A DNA stretch of 64,000 nt from a virus (IMGVR_UViG_2889049205_000001:164842-228841); one strand, 5' to 3'. Counted from the stretch's first letter, positions 4,563 through 32,236 are shown. A program made the numbers and translations. Notes: a model not told the origin generated them from the sequence alone.

Positions 4563-4646
4563 ATGCAATACGTCACCACCATTATCATTGCTGCTCTTTA
4601 TATTTGGGCCAAGTATTACAAGCGCAAGCACTTGCGGAGCTTCTAG
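4563..4646 (+). CDS. 27-aa membrane peptide MQYVTTIIIAALYIWAKYYKRKHLRSF
   Basis: Strong AAGGAGG RBS; hydrophobic helix followed by a basic tail. Confidence 0.55.
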   Translation: MQYVTTIIIAALYIWAKYYKRKHLRSF

Positions 4647-4894
4647 TGGATCTCACGATCGCATACTTGATTCGAACTGAACAATGGCCTGAGCCCCCGT
4701 TCCCCGGATGGCGGCGACAATGGCTGTGCTGCAAGGTTTGCGGATACCTACAGTATTACGATTATATCCCCTACTCGCTGCAGAATCCTATTATGTGGAG
4801 TGCGTGCGGCCATGATCTCAAAACGCAAATGCACCGTCTTTCCGATCCGCCGCTACAACTAAACCCGAAACCAGAAAGGAACGACCATGGATAA
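4646..4894 (+). CDS. Cys-rich protein with N-terminal MDLTIAY tag
   Basis: GGAG RBS and GTG at 4646 overlapping the upstream TAG; CCKVC...CGH. Confidence 0.6.
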   Translation: MDLTIAYLIRTEQWPEPPFPGWRRQWLCCKVCGYLQYYDYIPYSLQNPIMWSACGHDLKTQMHRLSDPPLQLNPKPERNDHG

Positions 4895-5468
4895 AGAAAA
4901 AAAAGAAATCGGAAACGTGATCAACGGGCTCTTCGGCGCCTTTGAAGCCGAGTCGGACGCAAAGAATGCGGACTGGATCCGCAGCGTTACGCAGGAATAT
5001 CATTACCTGGACCTAAACAATCCGGAGAAATTTTCTCTGCTGCTTACGATGGCCGTTCGAGACAAAGCTGATGCTTTGATGCGCCATGCCCTCCCCTCTA
5101 TCGTGCCGGCGGACCTGAACCGTAAACTCAAGCACAAGGTGGAGTTCGCCTTCCTTCATTACGATTTCATTGCCCGTCATCTGAAAAGCATCATTCTGAA
5201 GTTCGAAGGCCACGGCTGCTCCACAGACAAGACCCGTTGGCTGATCGACAGCTATGTGAAATACATTATTAGTGGCGATCTGCCCCTAATTGAGGAGAAG
5301 AAATACTGGCATCCGGCCTGCGGCGAAGTCGCCGACTGGATGGCATGGATCGATACGATGGGCGATCTCTATTACGGAAACGTTGAGCGGTATGCGCTTG
5401 CCAAGATCAAAGTCTTCAATAGCTATGCGTATAAATGGACAGAATCCGGAGGCGATTCGAATGAATGA
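4887..5468 (+). CDS. Hypothetical protein
   Basis: 193 aa; AAAGGA RBS. Confidence 0.7.
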   Translation: MDKEKKEIGNVINGLFGAFEAESDAKNADWIRSVTQEYHYLDLNNPEKFSLLLTMAVRDKADALMRHALPSIVPADLNRKLKHKVEFAFLHYDFIARHLKSIILKFEGHGCSTDKTRWLIDSYVKYIISGDLPLIEEKKYWHPACGEVADWMAWIDTMGDLYYGNVERYALAKIKVFNSYAYKWTESGGDSNE

Positions 5469-6060
5469 CACAGCGATGATCAGAACGTTTGGTGAGTACC
5501 ACAAAAAGTGGAGTGCTGGCGCCACGATGCTGATTGCACCACATGACGTGGACACTCGGGATCACAACGAATTCGGCATTATTGATGGCCGGCACTGGCG
5601 TCCTCTCTCCTTTTCCCCTGCTCTTCAGGATCTGACTGGTACCTTTGTTCGCTCGCAAATCCTGGAGTATTGCAGCGAGCGGTCTATTAAGCTGACCGAG
5701 GAACAAATCGTTTCAACTGTCGAAATCGTTCAATATTGGCTGACAGATGCGATCAGTAATTCTATCGACAATGCCATCGATAATCTGGAATTGGACCGTG
5801 AGCTCGTAATCCTGAATGCCTGGGGCGGTAAGAACGAAGGCGGTGATCTGGAGCTCCTCACCACCGACGTAAGCGAAATACCGAACGGCACCTGCGAGCT
5901 CGAGATTGTCAAGGGCTTTATCGTCAGCGGCGGCGCTGATATCCGGGATTGGGTCGAGGATAATCTCAAAGAATTCTATGAAGACAAAGATGAGCTGAAT
6001 GCTGCCCTCGTTGAGCATAATCTCACCCACCTGGTTAATGACCAAAGTGAAGGAGCGTAA
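5461..6060 (+). CDS. Hypothetical protein
   Basis: GGAGG RBS before ATG at 5461. Confidence 0.7.
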   Translation: MNDTAMIRTFGEYHKKWSAGATMLIAPHDVDTRDHNEFGIIDGRHWRPLSFSPALQDLTGTFVRSQILEYCSERSIKLTEEQIVSTVEIVQYWLTDAISNSIDNAIDNLELDRELVILNAWGGKNEGGDLELLTTDVSEIPNGTCELEIVKGFIVSGGADIRDWVEDNLKEFYEDKDELNAALVEHNLTHLVNDQSEGA

Positions 6061-6065
6061 TAAAC

Positions 6066-6497
6066 ATGGATCCACTTGTAGGAATGATGGTTGATATGAT
6101 GATTGCGGGGAACCAAGAGGCAGCCGCCATCTACGATAGCATCACCGGCATTGATGAAATGTCAGACGTGCCAATGAGCAATGAAGTGCTGAGCCTCATT
6201 TACGTGCCATGCGACGTGAAAACGATCGGATCTGATTACTATCTGATCCACGAAGGAAAAGTCGTTTACATGGGCCACATTGATAACGAAGGGTTGGTGG
6301 ACACGGTAATCAAAGATATTACCACGCTGCCCGAATTTATCAATGTCGGGATCGCCGCTAAGCTCAATGATCGAGCGAAATTGGGAGAGTTCCTTTCCAA
6401 TGAAGAGACACTGCTCAAGATCATGAGCCAGCAGCAGCTCGGACTGCAGTATCTCGAGGAGAATCACGGTCCGATCGACTCTCGGAAGGTTAACTAG
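6066..6497 (+). CDS. Hypothetical protein
   Basis: AAGGAG RBS. Confidence 0.7.
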   Translation: MDPLVGMMVDMMIAGNQEAAAIYDSITGIDEMSDVPMSNEVLSLIYVPCDVKTIGSDYYLIHEGKVVYMGHIDNEGLVDTVIKDITTLPEFINVGIAAKLNDRAKLGEFLSNEETLLKIMSQQQLGLQYLEENHGPIDSRKVN

Positions 6498-6504
6498 GTG
6501 TCCA

Positions 6505-6972
6505 ATGGGATATGTATGCCTGAATGATTTCCATAAGGTTCGTACCGACGGTCGTGCAATGCGCCGTCGGGCGGCCCATCTGGACGCCGGCGATCGCTAC
6601 GAGTTCCGTGAATCCTTGCACGGCTTCATTTATGAGGTCGTCGATCACGAGAGGATGGTCTTCTATCGTCAGGATCGCCCTGTATTCAATCAAGGGGATC
6701 TGTTTGAGGGGTTCCTCCCTTTCATGTGCGACTACTGCAAGCAAGTGGTCTACAGTACCTACTTGGTGCCCTATCGCCTGAAATTTGAAATGCTCACCCG
6801 ACCGTTTACCGATAGGCCTGAATGGAAGAGTAGCTACTTGGATATCAAGTTCTCCTGCTGTAATGCATGTCATAATGGCCCGCTGCCCATTCCGGAGAAG
6901 CTGATCGGCCATCATTTGACGGAGCTGCAGCAAGACGGCCGAGCAATCTTTACCCAAAAACGAAAACTGTGA
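6505..6972 (+). CDS. Hypothetical protein with CxxC motifs
   Basis: CDYC and CCNAC motifs. Confidence 0.6.
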   Translation: MGYVCLNDFHKVRTDGRAMRRRAAHLDAGDRYEFRESLHGFIYEVVDHERMVFYRQDRPVFNQGDLFEGFLPFMCDYCKQVVYSTYLVPYRLKFEMLTRPFTDRPEWKSSYLDIKFSCCNACHNGPLPIPEKLIGHHLTELQQDGRAIFTQKRKL

Positions 6973-6982
6973 GGTGGCTTTT

Positions 6983-7249
6983 ATGAGTAGTAAGCGCAAC
7001 AGGATTTTGACGATTATCACCCAGGGCTGTTTGGACCCGATTACCGCATTAGACGTTAAGACCGACAACATCATGTACGTTTATGGCGGCCGCAGCGAAT
7101 TTGACGACATGCTGAGTGAGATTGAAGATTTCTTCGATGTAGACGTTTCTCTTCCGGAGGACGAGGATATCGGTGAAATGACCGTTCAGAAATTTGTGGA
7201 CACTGTGCTCCATCTTCTTGGAGGCGAAGACGAGGAGGTTGCAAGCTGA
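6983..7249 (+). CDS. Acyl carrier protein-like small acidic protein (divergent)
   Basis: GGRSEFDDMLSEIEDFFDV...TVQKFVDTV aligns by eye with ACP [20 protein letters not shown]...TVQAAIDYI. Confidence 0.55.
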   Translation: MSSKRNRILTIITQGCLDPITALDVKTDNIMYVYGGRSEFDDMLSEIEDFFDVDVSLPEDEDIGEMTVQKFVDTVLHLLGGEDEEVAS

Positions 7250-7530
7250 TGGGATTCACGATCACGAAGGACAACATCCATACGGAGCCGGATGAAAAGC
7301 AGTGGGATAAGACCGGAAAGAGATTCAAATGCATCTGTGTCGATGAAGCTAAGAGCTATGCCGAAGGGCAGCATAAATTTAGGCTCCTCGATGACGACCG
7401 CAATGTTTATTTATACGGCAAGTCCGACGATGACAACTGCTTTTGTCCGCTGGACTGGTCGCAGCCGCTGTGGGGCACCACAGAGATTCAATATTATGAC
7501 GAGCAGACAAGGGAATACAAAACGCTCTAG
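7249..7530 (+). CDS. Hypothetical phage protein
   Basis: GAGGAGG RBS; FRLLDDD..VY..G motif. Confidence 0.7.
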   Translation: MGFTITKDNIHTEPDEKQWDKTGKRFKCICVDEAKSYAEGQHKFRLLDDDRNVYLYGKSDDDNCFCPLDWSQPLWGTTEIQYYDEQTREYKTL

Positions 7531-7545
7531 GAAGGAAGAAGCGAA

Positions 7546-7974
7546 ATGATGCGAGGCATGATCATCACGCATAACGACGGAACTCCGGATCTTGAAATGG
7601 AGATCAGCAAGGCCAATCTGGTTAGATCCAGCGAGCGTGGATTTGTTTACATGGAGGAAATGGCCGATGGCAAGTGGCGCCTCACATATACTGATAAGGC
7701 AATCAGTGATTTCTCTAAGATCGCAGCCTTCCGAATGATTCGTCGGGGCGGCATAGTGGAAATGCCTGAAGAGCCCTTCCATATCAAGACGTACCGGGAT
7801 CTCTTGATTGCACTTTCGGATCTCGATCCGACCGATCTGGACCGGCCCTTGCGCTTGTACGAGGCGGCTGATGAGATGAACCTCTTCACCGTTGAGACGA
7901 CAATTGAACGTGACGGCAGCGGCGATCCATTCCTCGATCTTAATTTTCTGGATTCTGATTACATCGATAGATAG
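7546..7974 (+). CDS. Hypothetical protein
   Basis: 142-aa ORF in the operon. Confidence 0.65.
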   Translation: MMRGMIITHNDGTPDLEMEISKANLVRSSERGFVYMEEMADGKWRLTYTDKAISDFSKIAAFRMIRRGGIVEMPEEPFHIKTYRDLLIALSDLDPTDLDRPLRLYEAADEMNLFTVETTIERDGSGDPFLDLNFLDSDYIDR

Positions 7975-7984
7975 GAGAATCGTT

Positions 7985-8470
7985 ATGCGATCGAACGACA
8001 CCCTCGTTGTCCTATACAACGAAACCGAATTCCCTTCGGACCTATACCAGCTTGCTTTCCCGGCCACCGCCCAAGAAATGTATGAGTTGCTGGTCAAGCT
8101 CCGCAATATCAAGACAAAGACCGGTCAGACTATGGACGAATTTGCATATGTCTTTCCAAAAGGATCCCTCTACCCTGCGGACTACAAGGCGTTCTGGGAT
8201 GAGCGTAAGAACCCGCAGCGCAAACGTTTCAACACGCAAGCTGATTTCTTCCTGCAGCGGCCAATCCGTGGCGGCAAGGTAAAGCAGAAGCTATATGCAT
8301 TCGCAGAGGATTTCGATTGGCAGTTTGATAAATGGACAGGCCAGGACGTGATTATCTTGGACATGAACGAAGCCTTGAAAGGCGATTATGTTTATGAACG
8401 GGATATCCTCAAGCGTTGGGGTGACAAAGACCCCCTCATCTCGGCAGACCTTACCTACTGCGCTCAGTAG
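7985..8470 (+). CDS. Hypothetical protein
   Basis: AGGAG RBS before ATG at 7985. Confidence 0.7.
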   Translation: MRSNDTLVVLYNETEFPSDLYQLAFPATAQEMYELLVKLRNIKTKTGQTMDEFAYVFPKGSLYPADYKAFWDERKNPQRKRFNTQADFFLQRPIRGGKVKQKLYAFAEDFDWQFDKWTGQDVIILDMNEALKGDYVYERDILKRWGDKDPLISADLTYCAQ

Positions 8471-8471
8471 A

Positions 8472-8810
8472 TCAATACACAATGTGAAGGCTGCCATCGT
8501 CGAAGATCTGGATCTCCTGCGTGGCCATCATGAAGTCGGCGCCTGACGTGTATCCTTTTTCATTGAGTTCCTTCTGACCTGCCTCCCACGTATGACGATC
8601 AATGACGAGCCGGTAGTTCCACAAATCCTGGCCATCCACATCGTAAATGTCCGTGAGCTCGAGCTCGTTGCCGAACAGCTCCGTAAAGAAGGCAGCTGCT
8701 TCTTTTTGGGATCCGAACTGCGGAAGGTCTGCTTCGAACTGGCGGGTCAGCCGCTTGTGCTTTCCATTCCACATGTGAAAATAGGATTCCAAATTCTCTT
8801 TTGTAACCAT
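8472..8810 (-). CDS. Hypothetical protein; counter-oriented moron-like gene
   Basis: AAGGGG RBS and its own promoter, TTGCGT-18-TATAAT, on the - strand at about 8836-8865. Confidence 0.7.
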   Translation of the reverse strand: MVTKENLESYFHMWNGKHKRLTRQFEADLPQFGSQKEAAAFFTELFGNELELTDIYDVDGQDLWNYRLVIDRHTWEAGQKELNEKGYTSGADFMMATQEIQIFDDGSLHIVY

Positions 8811-8934
8811 AACGCACCCCTTTGCCTTTTTCGTAATTATACTTTTTCACCGACGTGATACGCAATGAGCAAACAAACCGTGCAAGATCCAAGCATCATG
8901 CTGAACTGCCAACTTTTGAGTGGAGGTAAACCAA

Positions 8935-9297
8935 ATGGGATACATGACGACCATTACGATTCTAAACGACGCCTTTGATCAGATCGAGAAGCATCCTGTC
9001 GAATTCGTAGAGTCAATTAAGCTTGGTATGAACGGTATCGATAAGTTCGGTGCCCGAAATAAGGAGATTTCCAATTTTGGAATCGGCAACTACGCAAACC
9101 CGATTGATGTAGCAAGAGCACATCATGCTGACGATCCACGCCTATACCTGGCTTTCCAAAATATGACGGTCGCCTTTGGATACTCAAACGACCTGAAAGA
9201 TCCTCGCCACTTGGAGCTCCGCAAGCGAATGCTGAAGATGGCCAAAGACATCCTGAAGCAAGAGGAGCGATTGATTAAAGAACTTGAAGGGAGATAA
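8935..9297 (+). CDS. Hypothetical protein
   Basis: GGAGGT RBS. Confidence 0.7.
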   Translation: MGYMTTITILNDAFDQIEKHPVEFVESIKLGMNGIDKFGARNKEISNFGIGNYANPIDVARAHHADDPRLYLAFQNMTVAFGYSNDLKDPRHLELRKRMLKMAKDILKQEERLIKELEGR

Positions 9298-9302
9298 GCA
9301 CC

Positions 9303-10022
9303 ATGGGAAAACATCGCCTGGGTACCAAAAATTATCAAGCCACAAATGCCAATCAGATTTGGTTGGACGAGGATCTACTTTATCTTCTCCTCAATTATAA
9401 GAAGCTTTCTGTCCGCTATAAGCCGGACGTTTGCTTCGACATGATCGGCCGGGAGCTCGGTCGATCGGTCAAGGCGTGTGCGTCGCAGCTTAGTCTGCTT
9501 CGCACCGGCAAGACCAAAATTAACATGCTCCCTATCCAGATCATGCTGGAAGATGTGTCTAGCATGGATGACTTCACCATTCCAGAGGACGACACAGCCG
9601 ATGAGGTCCACGATCCTGTCATCTCCGTGGTTCCCAACGAGAACTATGCAGACCTGGACGCAGCACAGGATTTTATCCGGAATATGTTCGGTCAACTCAA
9701 TCAGACAGTTCAAACGCTTGAGGCGTTGAACGATAAGCTGATCGCTGACAACGAGCATTTGACCGGAGAACTTGAGGCGAAAACATCCAATGCCGAGGAC
9801 CTCCAGCTGATCGAGAAGCTTCGGGAAGAAATTGCAACTCTGGAGCAGTGGCTGCGGGAGGAGCAAGCCAAGACGCACGGGCTTACGGAAGAAAACATCC
9901 GGCACATCAATGAGATCGAGCGTCTCAAGCGCAAGCTCTCTACGGTGCTTAATATACGGCATGAGCTGGAACAGGATCTGCAGCAGCAAGAGCAGCAGCC
10001 CGGCATTCGGAGAGTGAAATGA
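9303..10022 (+). CDS. Myb-like HTH plus coiled-coil protein (RsfA-like architecture)
   Basis: W..EDLL...IGRELGRSVKAC, followed by a long heptad region. Confidence 0.55.
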   Translation: MGKHRLGTKNYQATNANQIWLDEDLLYLLLNYKKLSVRYKPDVCFDMIGRELGRSVKACASQLSLLRTGKTKINMLPIQIMLEDVSSMDDFTIPEDDTADEVHDPVISVVPNENYADLDAAQDFIRNMFGQLNQTVQTLEALNDKLIADNEHLTGELEAKTSNAEDLQLIEKLREEIATLEQWLREEQAKTHGLTEENIRHINEIERLKRKLSTVLNIRHELEQDLQQQEQQPGIRRVK

Positions 10023-10282
10023 ATCTCGTCTACAAATATCTAATCATCCACAATATGGTCGGTAATTACAAAGAGGGCGACGAGTGCCCTCTTTGCGGCG
10101 AAAAATGTGATGACCAGTCTGAAAGTGTGGATGTAGGTGTCGGCTGGGTTCCAGTCACATACGACATGTACTGTTGGAATTGCGGCGCCGAAGGGCATAA
10201 CTCCGGAACTCAGGTCAGATGGTATGCTCCGGATCCGGACTCCCCATACGGTGTCTCGGCACTCTATGGACCAGCTATATAA
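10019..10282 (+). CDS. Zinc-ribbon protein with N-terminal MNLVYKY tag
   Basis: CPLCG and CWNCG; ATGA overlap. Confidence 0.65.
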   Translation: MNLVYKYLIIHNMVGNYKEGDECPLCGEKCDDQSESVDVGVGWVPVTYDMYCWNCGAEGHNSGTQVRWYAPDPDSPYGVSALYGPAI

Positions 10283-10292
10283 ATGAAATGAG

Positions 10293-13053: not shown

Positions 13054-13066
13054 GGGCAATTTCCTT

Positions 13067-19360: not shown

Positions 19361-19789
19361 TCATCCATTATTTGAGAGATGTCTCATGCTCTCGAATATG
19401 AATGATCCCTCGACGGTCATCGGATCGTCCGGCCCGTTTAATCGAACCTGATAGCTGACAAGGTATGCCTTCTGCAGAAGCTCATCGCCGAAGTGGATAT
19501 TTACGCAAGGAGTGCTGGTCATGTACATAAAGAACCGATTGCAGGCTTCGTTATTGGGGAATGCGATCGCAAGTTCTGCTTGTCCCGTATAGGATGCAGC
19601 CATATAGGATCCGTCCTGCAGCTCCGTGCCTCCGGCACCGAATGTCGTGGACAATAGTCGAGCGGAGATTGGGATCTCAAGGTCAAAAGCGACGCTCGTT
19701 ATTTTACCAGGCAAGTGGCCATAGGGCCGCTGCACCCGCCAGACGACTGGATCTCCATGAAGCCGGCAATATGCTTTAACGAGCTCCAT
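19361..19789 (-). CDS. MELVKAY-tagged protein, possibly tail-tube-like body
   Basis: N-terminal tag; C-terminus AYLVSYQVRLNGPDDPMTVEGSFIFE. Confidence 0.65.
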   Translation of the reverse strand: MELVKAYCRLHGDPVVWRVQRPYGHLPGKITSVAFDLEIPISARLLSTTFGAGGTELQDGSYMAASYTGQAELAIAFPNNEACNRFFMYMTSTPCVNIHFGDELLQKAYLVSYQVRLNGPDDPMTVEGSFIFESMRHLSNNG

Positions 19790-19791: not shown

Positions 19792-20142
19792 CTACTCCGG
19801 AAGCGGATCGACGAGGAAACTGTACTGCATATCATCGCCGTCCAAGAAAAAAGTCATCGAAAGGATTCTGAATGGTAGCTCCTTTTGAAGTCCATTATCC
19901 AAGAGGAGGACAGCCAATCGCTTGCTCCAATTCTCGGTCTTGCCGCTGTGCATTTGCTTGTGGACCCACTCCTCGACACGGACAATAGCTCTGAACCTGG
20001 TACCAGTGAAATTGTGATCCCGCTTGAAGCTAACGAGCTTACAAAATTCCTCGTTGATTTGCTGCACGTTATCGCTCTTGTCCGTGATCCAGAGTCGGCA
20101 GCGGACGAATGTGCTTTCCAGGTACTTCTCCGTCATCTCCAT
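19792..20142 (-). CDS. MEMTEKY-tagged hypothetical protein
   Basis: GGGGGTG RBS; tag. Confidence 0.65.
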   Translation of the reverse strand: MEMTEKYLESTFVRCRLWITDKSDNVQQINEEFCKLVSFKRDHNFTGTRFRAIVRVEEWVHKQMHSGKTENWSKRLAVLLLDNGLQKELPFRILSMTFFLDGDDMQYSFLVDPLPE

Positions 20143-20438: not shown

Positions 20439-20870
20439 TTACCTCCAGGGTCTCATCGAAAGGCCGGTTCTGCCATCTTGAGTGTTGTAGTTAAAGACAA
20501 TTTTTTTGAACGAAAATTTACGTAAGGAAAACGGAAGCGGCCCGTTGTCCATGTTTATTCTCAGCTGCAATGGCATAAGGCGTTTCAACACGCAGCTCTC
20601 AAATCGATATATGAAGCCGCCCTTTCTGAAGAAAAGCTCGAAAGGTGTCTTTTGATTCAGGCAGCGTCGCACAAACTCATCTTCATGCTCGACGTTGGTG
20701 AAACCGGCAGCAACAGAGGCTTCTCCCTTATTCCGATCGTCGCTATGTTCACGCACCCACATCTCGAGCTCCATGTCGAAGCCGGATATGGTTATCGTTG
20801 CACGGGTAAAGCCATGTTTATCAATGGCGTTCTTGGCCACAAGATCAATATAGTTGGCGATCATCTCCAT
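20439..20870 (-). CDS. MEMIANY-tagged protein, possibly tail-tube-like body
   Basis: GGAGGTG RBS; TAATG coupling to the dnaE stop. Confidence 0.65.
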   Translation of the reverse strand: MEMIANYIDLVAKNAIDKHGFTRATITISGFDMELEMWVREHSDDRNKGEASVAAGFTNVEHEDEFVRRCLNQKTPFELFFRKGGFIYRFESCVLKRLMPLQLRINMDNGPLPFSLRKFSFKKIVFNYNTQDGRTGLSMRPWR

Positions 20871-23800
20871 TAGGCGATGTCCACCTCCCACTTCTCGTTG
20901 TCCCTGGTCATGATTGTCAGTGAGTCGCAGACCAAATCATCCTTCTGTTTCTTGCCGACCACTTGTACTTTGATGTTTTCCCGCAGCGCATCCCCATGCT
21001 TATTGATGATCTTTGAGAACACAACAACCTTGCGGACATCCTCCGCTGTGTTAATCCACATCTCAGCGTACTTGTTCCCTTTTTTGGAGGTCAGCACGTC
21101 GTATTTGAAGACAACGCCGGTCATATGGACATCCGTTTTACCTTCCGGAATTTGATCCCATCTGGACTTGATCGTAACTGATGTGCCAAGGAGCTCCCGC
21201 TCGTAATCGAGGATGTGCTTCTTGTTTGTCTGCGCCGAGATTTCTTCCCACTTCTTGTCGCCCTTTGACTGCAGGAACGTCCGCAGCAGCTGGTTGCGTC
21301 CCTTGTTAATGGAATCGAAAGCGCCAACCTTGATTAGGTTAACGACCTTGGTCTTGTTGACCTTCACGCCGTTTGTGAGGAACACGAGCGCTTCAACCGA
21401 TTCATATGGTCGCTTGCTAATGATCTCCTCCACCGTGTCCGAGCTGATGCCGGCAATACTGGCCAGACCATACCGGATGTAACCGATGCTGTCGTCACCG
21501 AAATCAATGTTCTCTTTACGCTCCGGTGTCCAGGAGGCATTTGAGCGGTTGATGTCCGGCGGCAGGATCTTGATCTTCATCTCTTCGCATTCCTTCATGT
21601 AGATGACGTTCTTAGGAATGTTCTCCTTCTTCTTGCCCTCAGAAATGGTCATTAGAGCGGCCATAAACTCAACAGGGTAGTAAGTCTTCAGCCACGCCGT
21701 TTGAATCGATAGCTTGGCGTAGCAGGCGCTGTGCGCTAGGTTAAAGCAGTAGTCGCCAAACTTTACCCAGTCAGCTTTGATTTTCAGCAGCGCTTCCTCA
21801 GAGAAGCCACGATTTACGGCGCCTTCCAGGTGCGGAACCTTCATGTATTCCGGATCGTACTTGATAATAATTTCGGATGGCACGTCGTCTTTATTGGCAT
21901 AACTGGCAACGATCTCTGCGACCTTAGCACGGTCTTGCTTGTACCATTCGCTACCGTAGATCATAAGATCGATCCATTTGCTCATGATGTCGTGCTTCTT
22001 CTTTGAAATCCCTTTACGCAGAATGTTTGACTGGCCACGGGTGAATCCTCCGAGTCGAATCGAGGCCTTCATGATCTGCTCCTGGTACGTCCAAATGCCG
22101 AACGTATCCTTCAGGATCTCTTCAAGTTCCGGCACTGGATAGACAATGCGTTCACGGCCAAATTTGCGATTGATGTAGGACGGAATCAAGTCCATAGGGC
22201 CTGGCCGGCCAAGCGCCACGATGACGGAGATGTCATCAAAGCTGGATGGCCTCATCTCCTTGATAATCCCTTGATACAGATCGCTTTCGCATTGGAAAAT
22301 GCCAGCTAGGTTCAGGGCCTGGTACACATCTTGATAGACCTTCGGATCATTGAGATCGATATCGTCAATGTCTACTACGCCCCAGATGCCGGCATATTCC
22401 ATGGTCAGCTTGATGACATCGAGCGCATCAATTTTCAGGATATCGAATTTGACCAGCAATTTTTCGATCCATTCCATATCGAACATTGTCGTTTCAAGTG
22501 CATCTTTATCAAGCCGCAATGGGACACGCTTCGTAATCTTATCTGGTGACAGAACGATGCCGCCGGCATGTGTTCCGACATGATCGATGTGCCCCTCGAG
22601 TTTTCTGGCAGCCTTCCACCAATCCGGGTACTGATCAGCATAAACCTTAACCATTGGCGTATTGACGTCATTGTAGGCCTGCTCGAGCATCGACCGCTTA
22701 TCGCTGTACGTGACCAGCGCACGTTCGGATATCGATTTGGCGAATCCATCTTGTGTATCCAAGTCAAAGCCGAGTGTCTTACCGACTTTCCGAATAGCGG
22801 AGCGAGCTGCCAGTGTGCCGATCGTACCGATTTGCGCCACACGATCGATACCATATTTTTCTTTAAGATACATCTGCACGGCACGGGCGCCGGCATAAGA
22901 GAAGTCAATGTCGATGTCCGGATATTCCGCCCGTTCTGGATCGAGGAAACGCTCGAACATCAGATTGTGCTTGATCGGATCCAGCGTGGTGATCTGAATG
23001 CAATAGCAGACGAGTGAACCGGCGGCGGAGCCACGTCCTGGTCCAACGAGGTATCCGTTGTTCTTCGCCCACTGGATGAAGTCGGCAACGATTAGGTGAT
23101 AATCGGCAAAGCCGAGTTTATTAATGACCCCAAGCTCATATTTGAGCTGCTGGGAGTATCGTTCAATTTGAGCTGAAACATCAGCGTACTTCATGGCCTT
23201 TTGGAACAAGCCGTTCCAGGCCATCTTCTCAAGAAGCTGCTCGCTTGTCTCATCCCCATTGATCGGATAACGTGGCAGCAGCGGCTTGTCAGGCAGTGAG
23301 ACATTGACGAGCTCAGCGATCTTGTATGTATTGGCGATCGCTTCTTCATCATTCCAATTCTCACGGATCTCTTCTTCGGACTTCATCCAGAACTCATGCG
23401 CATACCGCATCCGGTCTTCATCGTGGATGCATTTACCGGTCGAGGAAGCCACAAGAATATCATGAATATCATAATCGTCTTTTTGTGCGTAATGCACATC
23501 AGTCGTGAGGATCTTCGGCGTATTGGTTTCAATAGCGAGTTGATCCAGCAGGGCGTTCAGCCGCACCTGGTCAGGGATCATTGTTGCTTGTTTTTCGAGG
23601 TAGAACGAGTGAAACGTTTCTTTGCATTCCTGAATGAACGCTTTAGCTTCATCCATCCTTCCTGCGAGAGCAAGACGGCTAAGCCAACTACCCAAACAAG
23701 CAGAAGTAGCAATAATATTGGCCCCAAGATTATGGCTGCGAATGAAAGAAAGATCAGTGCGAGGGTCAGAATAAAAGCCATTGATATGAGCATCGGAAAC

Positions 23801-24340: not shown

Positions 24341-24352
24341 GAAAGCCAACCC

Positions 24353-25554: not shown

Positions 25555-25571
25555 TCCATCATTCCCTTGAC

Positions 25572-25618
25572 GTAATGCATTACATATTTATTATACTGGT
25601 GAAAACAAGAGAAATCAA
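25572..25618 (-). promoter_or_regulatory. SigA promoter with operator GTAATGCATTAC at +1
   Basis: TTGATT-17-TATAAT followed by the palindrome. Confidence 0.7.
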
Positions 25619-25623
25619 GAGAA

Positions 25624-25866: not shown

Positions 25867-26681
25867 TTTATTTCTCCTCGCTTTCTCATGTCACGGAAAT
25901 GCTCCACCAGATCCCGCCGCACCTTTCCGATGTAAACCGGGTTATAGCCGATATCCCGTGCGATATCCTTGTCCTTGTAGCCACATTCATAATATTTGAC
26001 GAGCACCCGGCGCTGCATGTAAGACAGGTCCTTGAACAGATCCCCGTTACCATAGCCATTGAACCAGTTCTCATTGTTCAAATCATCCTGAATATCGGGG
26101 TCCAGCTGCAGCGGGTTCTCAATTGTATCCATAAGGGAATCAACAAACGGTACACGTTGTCCAGCCTGCATCATGTCAGAGTATGTAGAGCTGGAATCAC
26201 TGGCGTCGTACATTTTGGCATCGATATGATGCTTGAGGCGGTACCGGAAAGTTTTGTAGACGTATCGCTGGAATCCTGCGCCTTGATCAACATAATCTTT
26301 GGCGCAGCCAAGGAAGATCATGACGAGCTCATTGTACAAGTCGTCATACGGTATGAAGTCCTTTATCTCGGAGTCCCTATAGTCGAGCGGGATTCGTGCC
26401 CAATCGTAGTCCTCAAAGACTTTTACGATCAAAGAAAGCATCCGGTAGGCGGCGGCCCGTGCTTCTGCACTTTGATACTTGGGCCCACGCCGCAGGCTTT
26501 TCACATGCTCCGGATTGCGAATATAGCAAGACATGAACTGTCGGATGTCATAGTTTTCAAAATCAATATGTTTCTTCCGAAACAGCATGTAATATTTCAG
26601 TATGAAATACTTATAAGCTGCTACCAGGTCATCGGATTTACCCGACGCCTGGTAGGCTTTGATTAACTCGTCGCTCATCAA
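25854..26681 (-). CDS. Phage sigma-70-like factor
   Basis: DDLYNEL...F..Y...FRYRL (region 2) and LSYMQRRVLVKYY..GYKDKDIARDIG (region 4 HTH). Confidence 0.7.
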   Translation of the reverse strand: MMSDELIKAYQASGKSDDLVAAYKYFILKYYMLFRKKHIDFENYDIRQFMSCYIRNPEHVKSLRRGPKYQSAEARAAAYRMLSLIVKVFEDYDWARIPLDYRDSEIKDFIPYDDLYNELVMIFLGCAKDYVDQGAGFQRYVYKTFRYRLKHHIDAKMYDASDSSSTYSDMMQAGQRVPFVDSLMDTIENPLQLDPDIQDDLNNENWFNGYGNGDLFKDLSYMQRRVLVKYYECGYKDKDIARDIGYNPVYIGKVRRDLVEHFRDMRKRGEIKWLR

Positions 26682-27243
26682 CCATCATCTCCTGGCCATA
26701 TAGCCGCTGCTGCAGGATCTCGTCCTCATCAGCCTTGCGGTAAATGTAAAGCTCGAAGAATGGCTTTTCGCCCGGAGCGACCGTTTTGAAGTCCATGACC
26801 CTCGGCAGCGCAAAGTGGTCGTCATCGTAGATGATTTTATTCAATGCGTCCATCAGCAGCTTGAATACGTTATTCGTGTCCCGGTCCCGGCTCTCGTCAG
26901 GGAAGTGAGCGATCATCTCGACGACGATCTTCTCCTTCTCAGTCATCTGCCAGGCTGTGTCGTGCGCCCACATAGAGGCCAGTGCCTCCCACTTCTCTTT
27001 CAGCGCCTCAGCCGGCTTTGAGAGCCTGCGGCCGCCCTTGCCAGTATGAACGTAGATATGATTGACACTCGGGTATACCCCCGCATCGCCACTCTCTTCT
27101 TTATGAATGATCCAGACTTTTTCCTTGACGGAAGCCTCCTTGCCTTTGAGCATTTTCTTCACGGTATTGCCTTCGGCGTCCCGCTTCACTCTCACGCCTC
27201 GGAACTTGCCATACATCATCATTGGTAGCATTAACGGCTCCAT
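26638..27243 (-). CDS. rusA: RusA-family Holliday junction resolvase
   Basis: PSVNH.Y; RDTNNVFKLLMDAL..IIYDDD. Confidence 0.8.
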   Translation of the reverse strand: MEPLMLPMMMYGKFRGVRVKRDAEGNTVKKMLKGKEASVKEKVWIIHKEESGDAGVYPSVNHIYVHTGKGGRRLSKPAEALKEKWEALASMWAHDTAWQMTEKEKIVVEMIAHFPDESRDRDTNNVFKLLMDALNKIIYDDDHFALPRVMDFKTVAPGEKPFFELYIYRKADEDEILQQRLYGQEMMVDERRVNQSLPGVG

Positions 27244-27253
27244 GTCGATCCCC

Positions 27254-27703
27254 CTATCGCACAGTGATATTCATTTGTGGAATCAGGGCCATGGTGATCA
27301 CGACAGCCTCGCCAATGAATTGGCCGCCCGGCGCATAGCGCTTGGTGTAATTCATGTCTTTCGCAGCATACTGCTCGGAATTGATCTGGTACTCTTCTTT
27401 GGCGAATTTAAGCATCGTGGCTTCGATCAGTGCGTCACGGGTCAGGTTGACCATATCTTTCATGCGCAGCTCGTGCCAGTCGCTCTCCTCTTCTTCCAGC
27501 AGCTTGTTGATCGTGTCGCAGTATTCTTCATACGAGAGGCGGCATTTACTGCCAAGCTCGTCGAACTTGTCCGGCTCGAGGGTAAGCTCGATCGTCTTGA
27601 TTCCGCCCTCCTGCCGCTCGCTCAAGCTGACAAGCTTACTGTTTTGCTCCATCTCGTGGGTCTGGCTTTCCTTCATGAAATTCTTCTTTTTTCCGACCGA
27701 CAT
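27254..27703 (-). CDS. Hypothetical protein (start uncertain)
   Basis: AAGGAG RBS; long ORF. Confidence 0.55.
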   Translation of the reverse strand: MSVGKKKNFMKESQTHEMEQNSKLVSLSERQEGGIKTIELTLEPDKFDELGSKCRLSYEEYCDTINKLLEEEESDWHELRMKDMVNLTRDALIEATMLKFAKEEYQINSEQYAAKDMNYTKRYAPGGQFIGEAVVITMALIPQMNITVR

Positions 27704-27801
27704 CTTTCGCATCTCCTTTCTGTGCCAATCCTTCTTGTATGATCCCTTTTCCGAGATCCTCAACGATGTTTACCATCCGTTTCATTCGATCACCATCCCC
27801 C

Positions 27802-27819
27802 TGTGTAATGCATTACACA
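27802..27819. promoter_or_regulatory. Operator TGTGTAATGCATTACACA
   Basis: 18-bp perfect palindrome just after a - strand TGcTATAAT. Confidence 0.75.
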
Positions 27820-27883
27820 AAATCATTATAGCACATTATGGCAGAAAAAAAAGAGGGATTTCTCCCTCTAGCTCGTGAAATCT

Positions 27884-28786
27884 TTATTTTCCTAGCAATT
27901 TCACAAGATTGATCAATCCAGCGCCGTAAAGATCGTCTTTCCCATTCGATCCTAAATCGACAACCGCTTTGACCACAGCCTGGTGAACCTGCTCAACCGG
28001 CGGCCGCACGATGCCCTGCTTCTTCAACAGCGAAAGATATAAGGCAATTGCCCCGGCGATGACCGGTGTTGCCATGCTGGTCCCCGACAGCTCAGCATAC
28101 TGGCCAGTCGGATACGTGCTGTAAATCTCCACGCCCGGAGCCATAACCTCATTCTTCATTCCATAATTGGAGAAGGTGGCCCGCTCATAGGTAAGGTCCA
28201 TCGCCGATACGGCAACTACCTCGTCGTACATGGCCGGCCAGCCAACGCTGCGGTTCTCATTGCCGGTTGCAGCCACCAGGAAGATTCCAGCTTCGTGCGC
28301 CCGCTTGACAGCCTCGTGCATGGCCGCCGGCGGCTCCTCGCTGCTGCCCAGGCTCATGTTGATCAAATCCACGCCCTGAGCAATGGCCCAGTCAATGCCC
28401 CTGACGATCGCCTCAAAGGATCCGCTGCCGTTGTCTCCGAGCACCTTGGCGATATACAGCTCCGCATGCGGCGCCACGCCGATCATGCCGATCCCGTTAT
28501 CAACGCCCGCAATGATGCCGGCAACGTGGGTGCCGTGCCCTTTCTTGTCTACGACGCCATAAGGCGACCCGGTAAAGTCCATGGCCGCCTTGATATTGCC
28601 CTGCAGATCCGGATGCGTCGTGTCCACACCGGTATCCAGAATAGCGACCTTGACGCCTTCTCCTTTTGTCTTCTTCCAAGCCTGCTGCGCCATGATTGCG
28701 TTCAAGCCCCAGTCGATCAGTTCTTGCCCGGCTGAAGCGGGAAGAATGTTCTCGACGGTTACGTCTTGAGTGAAAAGTTGATCCAT
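27884..28786 (-). CDS. Subtilisin-family (S8) intracellular serine protease
   Basis: ILDTG, HGTHVAG and GTSMATP catalytic triad; no signal peptide. Confidence 0.92.
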   Translation of the reverse strand: MDQLFTQDVTVENILPASAGQELIDWGLNAIMAQQAWKKTKGEGVKVAILDTGVDTTHPDLQGNIKAAMDFTGSPYGVVDKKGHGTHVAGIIAGVDNGIGMIGVAPHAELYIAKVLGDNGSGSFEAIVRGIDWAIAQGVDLINMSLGSSEEPPAAMHEAVKRAHEAGIFLVAATGNENRSVGWPAMYDEVVAVSAMDLTYERATFSNYGMKNEVMAPGVEIYSTYPTGQYAELSGTSMATPVIAGAIALYLSLLKKQGIVRPPVEQVHQAVVKAVVDLGSNGKDDLYGAGLINLVKLLGK

Positions 28787-28833
28787 TGGACCCTCCTTGT
28801 TTTTCACCCTGTCCCTTTGGTTATTGTAACACA

Positions 28834-29262
28834 TTACATCCTCATAAGGTATATGAGTAAGGAACCGACGGCAACACCCAGCACAAGAGGCAATACCCCC
28901 TTGAGGAAGACTCTGAGAATTACTGCGTCATTCCCTTCGTACATGACACGGCCCATTGGCCGTATCGGCAGCCTGGAGACGTAATGCTGAAGCTGGCTGC
29001 CGTCTTCTCCGGCATATTCCTTCTTGAGTCGTATTAGGTGGACATCATTGTTGGCCATGTATCGGACCTCGCTACAGAACTCCTCGTAATCGCCATTGTG
29101 GCGGCGCTTTTCCCACTTTTTTTCAACTCGCTCACGGCAGGTCTTGATGATGGATTCGGCATGCGCATGTATCATCACATCGATCGCCCGGCGATCCTCA
29201 TACCGCACGTAATCCTTAAATACGCCTTTGCGTATTTCAATATACTCAGCTACCAGCTCCAC
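28834..29262 (-). CDS. MELVAEY-tagged protein with C-terminal transmembrane helix
   Basis: GAGGTG RBS before GTG at 29262. Confidence 0.65.
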   Translation of the reverse strand: MELVAEYIEIRKGVFKDYVRYEDRRAIDVMIHAHAESIIKTCRERVEKKWEKRRHNGDYEEFCSEVRYMANNDVHLIRLKKEYAGEDGSQLQHYVSRLPIRPMGRVMYEGNDAVILRVFLKGVLPLVLGVAVGSLLIYLMRM

Positions 29263-29278
29263 CCGCTCACCTCTTCCA

Positions 29279-30013
29279 TTACGACCACTCCATGCAATAG
29301 TTTTTGGCTGGGCATTTATCGCAGGCATACGACTCTCGTGGATAGTAATAGCCCTTCTCCATGTGCTCCTTAAAAAGTCGGACCTGTTTGTATAGGCGCT
29401 GATAGTCTTTGCGACGCCGCTCCACATAGGCATTGGTGCCGAGCTTCAGATACTCCAGGCACATGCTGTCTGCTTCTCGATTGAACATAGAGTGGAACCC
29501 GATCGCCTGCAGTGTAAGCGCCATGTCGGTGCGGTTCCAGAACTCGTCTTGCTTGTGGTTAGACGTCTTGAAATTAACGATCTCCATGCCTCGTGTCGTA
29601 TTCCGGATCAGTGGAATCTTCCCGGTGATGAAGAGGTCTGGTCCGAAAGGGATCCTGAACTCTGTGTTGACGGACACGACTTCGTCCGGCACGTACCGCT
29701 GCTTCCGGTGGAAGCTGGCCAGCATGCCAAATGCATCGAGTTCCCGCTTCCGCTGCGACTGGCTGCTGTCGAACTTGATGTTCAGCACCTTGCCTCCGTA
29801 CCAGAGACTGGTAAATTTCTGCTTCATCGACTCCATGGAAAGCATTTTGTCTTCCTTGAGCTTCATGTAAAAATAGGAGATCGTCATCAGGACCGCCTCC
29901 CTGAGCCCGTCGTTTTCTGACATCTGCATGTTGGGTACCCGGTCAACGTGCGTGAGCTTGAACTTGAGCCCACACGACTTAAAATCGTACAGTTGGTCGA
30001 TCGTAATCTCCAA
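29279..30013 (-). CDS. PD-(D/E)XK/AddB-like nuclease fold, apparently catalytically dead
   Basis: GKIPLI and IVNFKT replace G.ID and .DYKT; Fe-S cysteines retained. Confidence 0.7.
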   Translation of the reverse strand: MEITIDQLYDFKSCGLKFKLTHVDRVPNMQMSENDGLREAVLMTISYFYMKLKEDKMLSMESMKQKFTSLWYGGKVLNIKFDSSQSQRKRELDAFGMLASFHRKQRYVPDEVVSVNTEFRIPFGPDLFITGKIPLIRNTTRGMEIVNFKTSNHKQDEFWNRTDMALTLQAIGFHSMFNREADSMCLEYLKLGTNAYVERRRKDYQRLYKQVRLFKEHMEKGYYYPRESYACDKCPAKNYCMEWS

Positions 30014-30452
30014 GAATATCTCCCCCTTCTTTTTTCGACCACCCCGGCCCCCGGAGTGCCTTCATCCAGTTCGGCTGGTAGCCTTTAAAGTAAGGCTGCT
30101 TCGCCTTTTCTGCTTTCCTCTTCATCGAATCCATAGACAAGATCTCTTCGATCATTTGCTCGTCACTGATCCGTTTCCCTCGATGATCAGCGAAGTATGT
30201 GGACAGAACAATCGTGCCGATCTGAGCTGACTCTTGGATATCGACCATGATGAATCGATTAGCTGGCAGATAATCCTGCTCCAATTTCTTCAGGGCAAAG
30301 TTGATTTGCTCCTGCATGAGTTGCCGATTCTGGTTCGTGTTCGGCTTATGTTTGTAATGGCTTGTGGCCATCTCGATTGTATCGCTTGCGATCTTTAGGA
30401 TCTTGGCCAAACGGTCATAGGATCGATTCAGGTATGAAGCGACTAACTCCAT
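29979..30452 (-). CDS. MELVASY-tagged hypothetical protein
   Basis: AGGAGG RBS. Confidence 0.65.
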   Translation of the reverse strand: MELVASYLNRSYDRLAKILKIASDTIEMATSHYKHKPNTNQNRQLMQEQINFALKKLEQDYLPANRFIMVDIQESAQIGTIVLSTYFADHRGKRISDEQMIEEILSMDSMKRKAEKAKQPYFKGYQPNWMKALRGPGWSKKEGGDILGDYDRPTVRF

Positions 30453-30742
30453 GCGATCATTCGCCCTCCTTCGTCTACACTGAACTTCACGTCCATGTCG
30501 ATGTTTCCGGATCGATCATACTTGAAGTCCAAGTGGATGAAGCCGCCATATCCGATCTCTTGGATCACGGCCTCTACCTTCTCCTCCACCTCGCCGATAT
30601 ATTCACTCGTAACGACCCTCGTCTTCATGCGCAGCTCCAGCATCGCCTTGCTGTAAGCCACTCGGATTAGCTGGATCTGATCCTCTGAGGGATGTCCAGG
30701 ACGAGGCGGATTGATTTCTAAATAGCGGTTGGCTAACTCCAT
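30443..30742 (-). CDS. MELANRY-tagged hypothetical protein
   Basis: GGAGGTG RBS. Confidence 0.65.
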   Translation of the reverse strand: MELANRYLEINPPRPGHPSEDQIQLIRVAYSKAMLELRMKTRVVTSEYIGEVEEKVEAVIQEIGYGGFIHLDFKYDRSGNIDMDVKFSVDEGGRMIAWS

Positions 30743-31023
30743 GGTGACACCTCCCTGCATACAAACGCCTTGTATTGGATATCGACTATGGCGTGATCGG
30801 AAATCGGATACGCAAATCGAATGCAGTGACCAAGAACCTCATAATCAGTTTGCATGACGCCATTGACATAGGCGGTGACGCTGCCATTCTTCGGCGTTTT
30901 CTGCAGCCAGAACTCCCCTTGCCAGTCAGATGGCTCGAAACGATCTGCACAGCTGCATATTTCAAAGATGAACTGCGGCTCATCAAATGTGCGCTGAACA
31001 AGATACTCCTCTACGAGCTCCAT
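30733..31023 (-). CDS. MELVEEY-tagged protein with a small virion-type beta-sandwich
   Basis: VTAYVNGVMQTDYEVLG..IRF......VDIQY. Confidence 0.65.
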   Translation of the reverse strand: MELVEEYLVQRTFDEPQFIFEICSCADRFEPSDWQGEFWLQKTPKNGSVTAYVNGVMQTDYEVLGHCIRFAYPISDHAIVDIQYKAFVCREVSPWS

Positions 31024-31580
31024 TTGCGTTTCCCTCTCTGATTCTCAAAGAAGTCACGCATCCGTGGTGGCTTTGGATCCTCTTCGTCTTTTCTCCGCTC
31101 CGACCGGCTACGTGGATCACGGTAGGTATCCAAGCAAGCCATATAACACACTACCTGCTCCAAGCGTTGGGTCAACTCTTCTGGCGCAAAGTTATAATTA
31201 CAGAAGGTTATATAGTATCCGATTTCTCTATAATGGCGCATATTGTGATCATCGATCTTCTTTTGTAATTGCTTCTGCTCTTTCTCATAGCCTTTGGCTA
31301 GCTGTTCCAGGTAAGCGGACACCAGCTCTACCTTCCGTCGCTTCTTAATCTTCTTTCTCTTCTTCGGCCTGACCACGGCCTGGTGATATTGGCTAATAAA
31401 TTCTTGGGAGTACGGATTGTATGGAAAGGACCATTCCTGGACGCTAAAGTCATTCGCCGGCATAACTTTCCCTGACGTATCCATACCCATAATCATTTCT
31501 TCAAGTGTATCGGCCGTCAGCGTGCCTCTTCCAATGATTACGACCGGCTCAAAACCGTTATAGGCATTTACGAGATCCAT
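31011..31580 (-). CDS. MDLVNAY-tagged protein with a second internal ELVSAY
   Basis: AGGAGG RBS. Confidence 0.65.
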   Translation of the reverse strand: MDLVNAYNGFEPVVIIGRGTLTADTLEEMIMGMDTSGKVMPANDFSVQEWSFPYNPYSQEFISQYHQAVVRPKKRKKIKKRRKVELVSAYLEQLAKGYEKEQKQLQKKIDDHNMRHYREIGYYITFCNYNFAPEELTQRLEQVVCYMACLDTYRDPRSRSERRKDEEDPKPPRMRDFFENQRGKRKWSS

Positions 31581-31588
31581 GGCGCCTC

Positions 31589-31789
31589 CTATGCGAATAG
31601 CTGCGGCAGTTTGCGGATTTCTTGCATGCGCAGATAGGCAGCCACCAATTCAATGGGATTCTTTATCACAGGTCGTGGTGTCGATGTAAATGTGTATTGC
31701 GTGCCATTTGTTGAGTATGTATACCGCTTCCAAGGTGTCCCTCGGTGCGGCATGTGATGTCGTTTAAAATAGGCGAGTGCAAGTTCCAT
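31589..31789 (-). CDS. MELALAY-tagged small protein with a second internal ELVAAY
   Basis: GGAGG RBS. Confidence 0.65.
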   Translation of the reverse strand: MELALAYFKRHHMPHRGTPWKRYTYSTNGTQYTFTSTPRPVIKNPIELVAAYLRMQEIRKLPQLFA

Positions 31790-31804
31790 ACTGGCATTTC
31801 CTCC

Positions 31805-32236
31805 TTAGCCCATCTGGCGAGTGATGGCTGCTTGAAGTTTCGGATAGGGATCTTCCCATCCGTCTGGCTTTTTCACTTTTCCGTCTTCCTTGTAATGCGG
31901 CTTGCCGTCTGGCCAGAGCTTGCTCATGTTGGCATGCTGCACGATGTCCATCAGCTCTTGCGGTCGGACGCCCATCTCAACAAGGGTGCCGACTGCGAAG
32001 TAGATGACATCGATCATGGCGTCAGCCTGATCAACGACATTATCGGACTCCTTGAACTCCTGGACCTCTTCTTGGATCCAGCTCATCCGCTTCTCGGTGC
32101 GATCGGCGCTCAGCATCGTCGGCTTGTCCATAGCCGGGTGATTGAAAGCCAACTGGAAGGCTCGAACCTGCTCATAGGTAAGGTCCAGTCCGTTAAGCAC
32201 GGTGCGGTCTTGATAAGCTCCTACTAATTCGCTCAT
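31805..32236 (-). CDS. MazG-like/PRA-PH dUTP pyrophosphatase with MSELVGAY N-terminus
   Basis: EEVQEF...DAMIDVIYF.VG...VQHANMSK..DGKVKKP.GW. Confidence 0.75.
   Translation of the reverse strand: MSELVGAYQDRTVLNGLDLTYEQVRAFQLAFNHPAMDKPTMLSADRTEKRMSWIQEEVQEFKESDNVVDQADAMIDVIYFAVGTLVEMGVRPQELMDIVQHANMSKLWPDGKPHYKEDGKVKKPDGWEDPYPKLQAAITRQMG

Follow-up and report, generated by a model that had tools for sequence, protein, structure and literature searches.

A short N-terminal peptide tag on unrelated proteins of a Paenibacillus jumbo-phage clade

Results

Tagged starts in the window

The subject of this analysis is a heptapeptide found at the N-terminus of otherwise unrelated proteins, M-[EDN]-[LM]-[VAIT]-x-x-Y, and encoded on the stretch IMGVR_UViG_2889049205_000001:164842-228841 (64,000 nucleotides, termed the window here), which forms the final 64 kb of the viral contig C3; window positions are counted from its first letter, whilst C3 coordinates count along the whole 228,841-bp contig. 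Twelve open reading frames (ORFs) with such starts, all supported by ribosome-binding sites, had been pointed out in a first-pass annotation of the window, and all twelve are present with the N-terminal sequences given there (Table 1): a GGAG-type Shine-Dalgarno (SD) sequence lies 4–12 nt 5' of every start, with GTG as the start codon at 4646+ and 29262- and ATG at the other ten. Taken over C3 and its relatives, the heptapeptide is a real, highly non-random and clade-conserved peptide tag, which very probably serves to dock its bearers on one reader; no description of the motif was found in the literature.

The GTG start at 4646 is corroborated by the related phage G401, in which the orthologous ORF (68% identity) begins MDLTIAYF at an ATG codon. 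The G401 orthologue of the ORF at 10019 (56% identity) begins MNLTFRYL, and in the G401 homologue of the ORF at 20439..20870 (31% identity) the aligned N-terminal residues NELASIYL lie one residue inward of the usual tag position. Second, internal copies of the tag occur in the ORFs at 31011..31580 and 31589..31789, where they are preceded by the non-start codons GTA and ATT respectively, and the G401 ORF syntenic to the latter has three in-frame tags, two of them at possible start codons: these in-frame copies (window 31011-31789 and G401) suggest that tagged mini-genes fuse and split here, or that the tags are multivalent. The tag clusters of the window lie between the ribonucleotide reductase and DNA polymerase genes. 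When ten of the tagged window proteins were searched against PHROGs, the only match obtained was to a family of unknown function; the MazG-like protein at 31805..32236 matches PF01503 with E = 5.9e-15, its domain starting at residue 24. A thirteenth match to the pattern, at 22195-, was rejected as a tagged start: it is internal to the DNA polymerase, and the motif, which we take to be a conserved DnaE motif, is kept in the polymerases of all relatives.

Table 1. Tagged ORFs and other features in the window (W) and along contig C3 (aa, amino acids).
Coordinates	Strand	Feature	Remarks
W 4646..4894	+	tagged ORF, 82 aa, GTG start, MDLTIAYL	no Pfam or PHROG match
W 10019..10282	+	tagged ORF, 87 aa, MNLVYKYL, two CxxC pairs (zinc-ribbon-like)	phrog_6115 (unknown function), 1e-6
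W 19361..19789	-	tagged ORF, 142 aa, MELVKAYC	no family match
W 19792..20142	-	tagged ORF, 116 aa, MEMTEKYL	weak homologues in G401 and G408, both tagged
W 20439..20870	-	tagged ORF, 143 aa, MEMIANYI	directly downstream of DNA polymerase gene
W 22155..22195	-	false positive, MDLIPSYINRK, in DNA polymerase III alpha-like gene	719 open codons upstream
W 28834..29262	-	tagged ORF, 142 aa, GTG start, MELVAEYI, hydrophobic C-terminus	strong SD (GAGGTGA)
W 29979..30452	-	tagged ORF, 157 aa, MELVASYL	G401 orthologue, 46% identity, begins MELVTAYM
W 30443..30742	-	tagged ORF, 99 aa, MELANRYL	G401 homologue begins at in-frame MNLVETY within longer ORF
W 30733..31023	-	tagged ORF, 96 aa, MELVEEYL	
W 31011..31580	-	tagged ORF, 189 aa, MDLVNAYN	internal tag copy V-ELVSAYLEQ, residues 84-93
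W 31589..31789	-	tagged ORF, 66 aa, MELALAYF	internal tag copy I-ELVAAYL, residues 46-53
W 31805..32236	-	tagged MazG-like / PRA-PH pyrophosphohydrolase, 143 aa, MSELVGAY (one extra residue ahead of tag)	Pfam PF01503
C3 94044-94757		tagged protein, weak P-loop/terminase-N match	Pfam
C3 95353-95793		tagged Tad2-like (Thoeris anti-defence 2) protein, 146 aa	domain residues 65-124, E = 1e-6, above Pfam cut-off
C3 99362-103045		1,227-aa clade-specific protein	no Pfam or PDB sequence match
C3 105,960-110,383		tandem array, 15 tagged ORFs	
C3 94,757, 95,793, 153,243, 158,565, 162,609		single tagged genes	
C3 137369-141033		conserved module: radical-SAM, 302-aa and AAA genes	
C3 139378-141033		Cdc48/VAT-like AAA ATPase, 551 aa	Pfam AAA 3e-29 and AAA_lid_3
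C3 153243-153998		founder family	
C3 159006-160319		phage DnaN homologue (beta sliding clamp)	

Enrichment over host and controls

C3 (50% GC) represents a jumbo myophage with PHROGs matches to portal, tail sheath, DnaE/PolC-type DNA polymerase, ribonucleotide reductase, helicases and a virion structural protein; it is one of three contigs in a 7.5-Mb genome, the chromosome beside it being of a Paenibacillus-type host (7.05 Mb, 55% GC). Over the whole of C3, 30-31 ORFs (approximately 11% of the genes) begin M-[EDN]-[LM]-[VIAT]-x-x-Y-[LIM]. A six-frame scan for x[EDN][LM][VAIT]..Y, where x is a start codon, the ORF is at least 40 aa long and an SD-like 4-mer lies upstream, gave 28 matches on C3 (229 kb), five on the chromosome and none on C2, a second large extrachromosomal contig (246 kb, 47% GC) that shows no tag enrichment. 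This corresponds to an approximately 170-fold enrichment per kb of C3 over the chromosome, where the matches are nearly all internal to long frames. Using our gene calls, 22 of the 259 C3 proteins fit the pattern proposed in the first-pass annotation, compared to a mean of 0.15 (maximum 2) for shuffled N-termini and 0.47 (maximum 4) under column permutation, and the enrichment expected there was thus found. The same signal emerged when residue triples enriched at positions 2-10 were sought without reference to the motif: E2-L3-Y7 ranked top in C3 (17 vs 0.49 expected) and also in the relatives G402 (13 vs 0.27) and G408 (7 vs 0.15), with nothing comparable in the phages 0305phi8-36 and MTATph1. 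Since internal copies of the motif occur at background level, the tag is start-specific.

Conservation of the peptide

The consensus over 65 tags from three phages is M-E(80%)/N/D-L-[V/I/M/T/A]-x-(A)-Y-[L/I/M/F]-(E/D), with no conserved residue beyond position 8 and E or D at position 9 in 23 of the 65 (35%). At the nucleotide level, the third codon positions 9, 15, 18 and 24 carry only 0.01-0.03 bits and position 12 carries 0.13 bits in this set, the Leu and Tyr codons of the tag follow genome usage, and upstream of the tagged starts only the SD sequence is conserved. As the wobble positions are random, selection acts on the peptide, in agreement with the first-pass annotation, and the conserved synonymous sites and flanks of a DNA-level repeat or start-associated sequence were not found. 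The start-associated sequences of cluster K mycobacteriophages are similar in being a conserved element at many gene starts within one phage clade, but these are DNA or RNA elements at and upstream of the ribosome-binding site, whereas here upstream and wobble positions are free and the peptide alone is conserved. The same data bear on the idea that the tag reflects selection on early codons or on the nascent chain for efficient initiation or early elongation, rather than for binding: codon 2 does favour GAG over GAA in C3 (21:4, against 52% genome-wide), but this bias is absent in G401 and G402, the wobble positions are otherwise random, an invariant Tyr 7 followed by a hydrophobic residue 8 would remain unexplained, and most phage genes, including highly expressed structural ones, lack the motif. 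We therefore give such a translational role hardly any credence.

Tag and body

Past the tag, the proteins have little in common, as the first-pass annotation had noted by eye: an all-against-all BLAST of the 30 tagged C3 proteins from residue 10 onward returned two related pairs only, and 86 tagged ORFs from five phages fall into 65 families by body similarity. Pfam places three of the tagged bodies in different families (PRA-PH/MazG-like, Tad2-like and, weakly, P-loop/terminase-N). The Tad2-like domain makes its gene a candidate anti-defence gene by sequence match; no homologues of this protein were obtained in a word-indexed protein search or among phage records. Despite the divergence of the bodies, the tag is also present in all orthologues of tagged proteins that could be detected in the other phages, and across 26 inter-genome homologous pairs (defined from residue 13 onward) identity amounts to 71% at the tag positions, compared to 37% for the bodies and 29% for the two x positions; retention of the tag in orthologues, a point on which the first-pass annotation could have failed, is hence clear.

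The MazG-like family illustrates how tag and body are combined. Its bacterial homologues (126-131 aa) begin at the conserved core and lack the tag, a point that the first-pass annotation had proposed to check, whereas homologues from jumbo phages carry a 10-15-residue extension that is tagged in some cases (MSELVGAY, MSKELVQAY, MELMTQY, MNLTETY, MSELIQAY) and untagged in other phage homologues of 71-75% identity: the tag is therefore a lineage-specific appendage. An AlphaFold2 (AF2) model of the MazG-like protein, based on a 60-sequence alignment, has a core with a predicted local distance difference test (pLDDT) score of 96-99, whilst residues 1-10 score approximately 50 and are predicted as a short helix (residues 2-9) followed by coil. 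A second model, of the tagged family encoded at C3 153243-153998 (termed the founder family below), has a mean pLDDT of 89, with residues 1-10 scoring 57 and a helix at residues 3-8; its best structural match is a YugN-like protein of unknown function (Z 8.8), which aligns from model residue 11, and no PDB entry reached an E-value of 0.001 in a Foldseek search with this model. Beyond the first ten residues, the two models score 91-99. A sequence that is invariant, and yet modelled with low confidence and placed outside of the domain, is what would be expected of a linear motif that folds on its partner. Proline is found at positions 9-18 in 44% of tagged compared to 28% of untagged small proteins (p = 0.0025), and the isoelectric point (pI) does not differ between these two groups.

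These results also speak to common descent, in which all tagged proteins would be fast-diverged paralogues of one family and the N-terminal helix a family signature instead of a transferable tag. The tandem array of small tagged ORFs, the few related pairs and a founder family that is tagged throughout are what such a history would leave. Yet neither similarity past the N-terminus nor a common fold was found: the two AF2 models are predicted to adopt different folds (all-alpha PRA-PH and YugN-like alpha+beta), the Tad2-like protein is of yet another kind, the 86 tagged ORFs have 65 body families, and one of the tagged domains, PRA-PH/MazG-like, has hundreds of homologues in bacteria, which are without the tag. 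Common descent of the entire set is thus very unlikely.

Distribution among relatives

Matches in the relatives (G401-G425) were counted per record with an exact DNA pattern for M-E-L-[VAITM]-x-x-Y, for which the reversed pattern as control gave approximately zero. The relatives with the most similar portal proteins, G401, G402, G403 and G404 (59-79% identity), have 7, 11, 5 and 2 matches and G405-G413 (44-58%) have 1-11, whilst the twelve IMG/VR relatives G414-G425 (38% or less) have 0-1 and four named Bacillus/Moorella phages (0305phi8-36, WH1, MTATph1 and KLEB27-3; 32-40%) have none. Full genome scans identified approximately 15 tagged ORFs in G401, 22 in G402, 15 in G408 and 3 in the more distant G411. 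The tag is limited to relatives with a portal identity of at least 44%, among which the IMG/VR relatives carry 3-22 tagged ORFs each, and thus represents a shared derived feature of one clade, which has been expanded in part of this clade. The most widely conserved tagged family is the founder family, present in every tag-bearing relative: a word-indexed search with it gave one non-self match only, and an exhaustive profile search found 41 representatives among 1.84 billion proteins, nearly all of which start with the tag or a near variant, the motif lying a few residues inward in a few of them. The motif may have arisen in this family and later been acquired by other genes.

Within the clade, the tag has changed in a concerted manner. 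Position 4 is Met in 17 of the 22 tags of G402 and in four of five pattern matches in its sister G403, while outside of these two phages it is V or I, also in orthologous pairs; position 8 in G402 is, as judged by eye, much less hydrophobic. That position 4 changed in parallel in so many unrelated proteins of the same genome is best accounted for by an altered binding site common to them all, and we infer from these sequences that a single common reader of the tag exists. This reader would be phage-encoded, since the host proteome lacks genuine tagged N-termini and the consensus shifts with the phage lineage; a host protein that differs between host species is an alternative that we do not favour.

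The same two observations count against a degron, by which a host AAA+ protease (ClpXP, ClpCP, Lon or FtsH), or a phage factor that supplies one, would recognise early proteins and remove them at a set time: a native host degron would not be expected to be essentially missing from the genuine N-termini of the host, and the V/I-to-M shift tracks the phage lineage. In addition, the motif does not, to our knowledge, resemble the published ClpX N-terminal motifs. That the tag is terminal, short and found on many unrelated accessory proteins of a short-lived type would suit a degron, as would its exposed, flexible placement in the models. We judge a host protease or chaperone to be a rather unlikely reader, and a degron proper to be more doubtful again.

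A different motif was noticed in G421 and G425, related 240-kb phages without the MEL tag: 4-7 dispersed small ORFs begin M-N-I-x-D-R, which occurs 13 times in six frames of G421, six times at starts, the reversed-pattern control giving none. This may be a different, smaller N-terminal tag.

Genomic setting and source genome

The gene for the 1,227-aa protein is followed immediately, in each of the four tag-rich phages, by the main tagged array, and a run of small early-type ORFs begins here. By protein-language-model features, this protein groups with viral clusters of which 39-46% of members carry the RdRP family (YonO-like two-barrel polymerase), and it may be a YonO-like single-chain RNA polymerase. 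A sigma-70 promoter scan of window 18-36 kb gave 18 sites compared to 19.5 expected, and thus no information on timing.

The portal protein of C3 shares 32-40% identity with its counterparts in Bacillus phage 0305phi8-36, WH1, Edson, KLEB27-3 and Moorella phage MTATph1, and 44-79% with those encoded on a set of uncultivated IMG/VR contigs of 70-216 kb; the source names of homologous proteins point to Paenibacillus and Paenibacillaceae hosts. A megablast of window 28-33 kb against phage records gave no match, and a portal search of 400 host-family genomes matched only the genome that carries the window. C3 1-17066 repeats the last 17,071 bp of the contig (window 46930-64000) with 99.94% identity, so that the unique genome is approximately 212 kb; either the genome has a long terminal repeat, or it is circularly permuted and its assembly overlaps. 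A few indels between the two copies split or fuse ORFs, as with a 605-aa ORF at window 51919-53736 that corresponds to ORFs of 528 and 77 aa in the other copy. Several relatives (G405, G407, G409, G410 and database contigs of 187-214 kb from Paenibacillus isolates) stem from isolate assemblies, in which they are labelled 'provirus' and form separate large contigs like C3. It may thus be that jumbo phages of this kind are maintained in cultured Paenibacillus as episomes or in a carrier state.

Discussion

The reading that we favour, and hold to be probable, is that the tag is an amphipathic-helix docking label read by one common partner. The heptapeptide would form a short N-terminal helix with L3, V/I4, Y7 and L8 on one face, often followed by a proline or linker, and would act as a short linear motif that has been added to a large number of unrelated proteins, mostly small and of accessory or early type, in one Paenibacillus jumbo-phage clade. 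A short helix docking on one hub had also been the proposal of the first-pass annotation: the helix stands as a prediction, placed by AF2 at residues 2-9 or 3-8 outside of the folded body, and the shared hub gains support from the lineage-specific change at position 4. Some observations pull in the other direction. Both the tolerance for one or two extra residues after the Met (MS-ELV, MT-ELA, MSK-ELV) and the two internal copies in window ORFs speak against a strict dependence on a free N-terminus, and part of the spread could be descent rather than independent tagging, as the founder family is tagged almost throughout.

For the reader itself, we ranked the phage AAA ATPase first, followed by the assembling procapsid, a host protease or chaperone and the phage beta-clamp, with the remainder left to something else. 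The AAA ATPase leads this list since Cdc48/p97 and Vps4 are hubs whose N-domains bind short motifs common to many cofactors: the phage protein combines a single ATPase domain, whose closest solved relatives are the D2 domains of VAT/Cdc48/p97 (E = 4e-71), with an N-domain of approximately 230 residues that has no Pfam or family match. It is 59-74% identical across the clade, higher than the portal, and is present in every complete tag-bearing genome; outside of the structural modules, it ranks with the best conserved of the approximately 50 C3 genes that G401, G402, G408 and G411 possess and that could not be detected in 0305phi8-36 or MTATph1. By analogy, the tagged proteins might then be interchangeable adaptors or clients of this ATPase, an assignment that is possible, if doubtful; it would give the F-box-like handle suggested in the first-pass annotation a candidate hub, the link being circumstantial. 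Against it stands that homologues with 34-42% identity occur in five tag-less relatives (G414, G419, G421, G424 and G425, of which G421 and G425 have the different M-N-I-x-D-R motif), so that ATPase and motif do not go exclusively together, that the approximately 50 other genes share its presence/absence profile, and that pore-loop-1 reads K/R-V-G instead of the aromatic-hydrophobic-Gly of threading AAA unfoldases. Joint substitutions of G402 and G403 in the ATPase affect nine of 211 columns that are invariant elsewhere; they outline no obvious pocket and are uninformative, given that these phages are sister taxa. The motifs of Cdc48/p97 cofactors (VIM, VBM and SHP box) and the MIT-MIM system of Vps4 offer a close parallel, in that a short, often helical terminal motif on unrelated proteins docks on an AAA N-domain and the phage encodes an AAA protein with a large N-domain; they differ from the present case in showing no sequence similarity to the tag and in that the phage protein has a single ATPase domain with a non-aromatic pore loop.

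The ATPase gene belongs to a conserved module, together with genes for an NrdG-like radical-SAM protein (Fer4_12 and a C-terminal treble clef) and a 302-aa protein without family. The radical-SAM and AAA genes also lie approximately 1.5 kb apart in distant relatives. As neither phage nor host has an NrdD (class III ribonucleotide reductase), the radical-SAM gene is an orphan with no known substrate. The tag as a modification site of the radical-SAM enzyme was considered and rejected: the gene is also found in tag-less relatives, and nothing ties it to the tag.

A capsid-targeting signal, by which tagged proteins would attach to the scaffold or core of the procapsid during its assembly and so be enclosed in the particle and delivered into the cell along with the DNA, is the explanation that follows most directly from the likeness to the internal proteins of T4, drawn in the first-pass annotation. 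Among described systems, the capsid-targeting sequence (CTS) of T4 comes closest, and it is the main case in which short address labels have so far been documented by experiment. The likeness holds insofar as the CTS of IPI, IPII, IPIII and Alt is also a short N-terminal amphipathic peptide on otherwise unrelated phage proteins of one lineage with one presumed partner; an injected toolkit including a Tad2-like anti-defence domain and a MazG-like enzyme would be plausible, and two tagged genes (C3 94044-95793) open the strand block that holds the structural genes. It fails in other respects: there is no sequence similarity to the CTS, bearers number approximately 30 as opposed to a handful, and no cleavage site is conserved (T4 has a prohead-protease site, L/I-x-E, directly after the tag; here position 9 is acidic in only about a third of tags). 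Furthermore, most tagged genes are found away from the head genes, either in arrays of small early-type ORFs downstream of the putative RNA polymerase gene or interspersed with genes for replication and nucleotide metabolism, no structural protein is tagged, and the pI bias expected of DNA-associated internal proteins is missing. The tagged proteins have no homologues in 0305phi8-36, the virion proteome of which has reportedly been published. As none of these points decides the matter, we regard the procapsid as an unlikely reader, albeit one to be taken seriously. Encapsulin cargo-loading and microcompartment encapsulation peptides are related in concept, as short terminal helices through which diverse cargo is directed to a single shell protein (the encapsulin shell having the HK97 fold, like phage capsids); however, these are usually C-terminal (encapsulins) or longer (approximately 18 aa, microcompartments), and here no shell other than the capsid is evident.

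Docking of the tag in the hydrophobic cleft of the phage beta sliding clamp is suggested by its PIP-like spacing (hydrophobic 4, aromatic 7, hydrophobic 8), which resembles the generally known consensus Qxx[LIM]xx[FY][FY]; as with the PIP box and bacterial clamp motifs, terminal hydrophobic and aromatic residues at i, i+3 and i+4 would serve one ring hub with many clients. The phage DnaN homologue is found in the complete tag-bearing relatives and weakly in one other, and two tagged genes lie near dnaN. Nevertheless, the tag has no Gln and an aliphatic position 8, matching neither this consensus nor QL[SD]LF; the expected clients DNA polymerase, RNase H and UDG are untagged at their starts, the clamp is poorly conserved (25-51% identity) in comparison to a near-invariant tag, and thirty clients that include a nucleotide pyrophosphohydrolase and a Tad2-like protein, hardly a DNA-centred list, are difficult to rationalise. 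The clamp is accordingly a far-fetched reader in our view. Judged by sequence comparison with all of these systems, the tag has the logic of known address and docking motifs but none of their sequences.

Should the AAA ATPase be the reader, it could recruit approximately 30 fast-evolving adaptors via the common handle, with each body seizing a different host or defence target for remodelling. We consider such a hub-and-adaptor takeover improbable as it stands; if true, it would represent in a virus what p97 and its cofactors, or SCF and the F-box proteins, represent in cells, with a set of adaptors that has been expanded and reshuffled within one phage clade. More generally, the tag would link a tenth of the phage's genes, most of them orphans, to one reader, whose identity would provide a functional entry to approximately 30 orphan proteins. 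The system would also offer a portable eight-residue tag for work on this phage, and the lineage switch at position 4, together with the loosened position 8, would constitute a natural experiment through which the reader may be mapped by co-variation.

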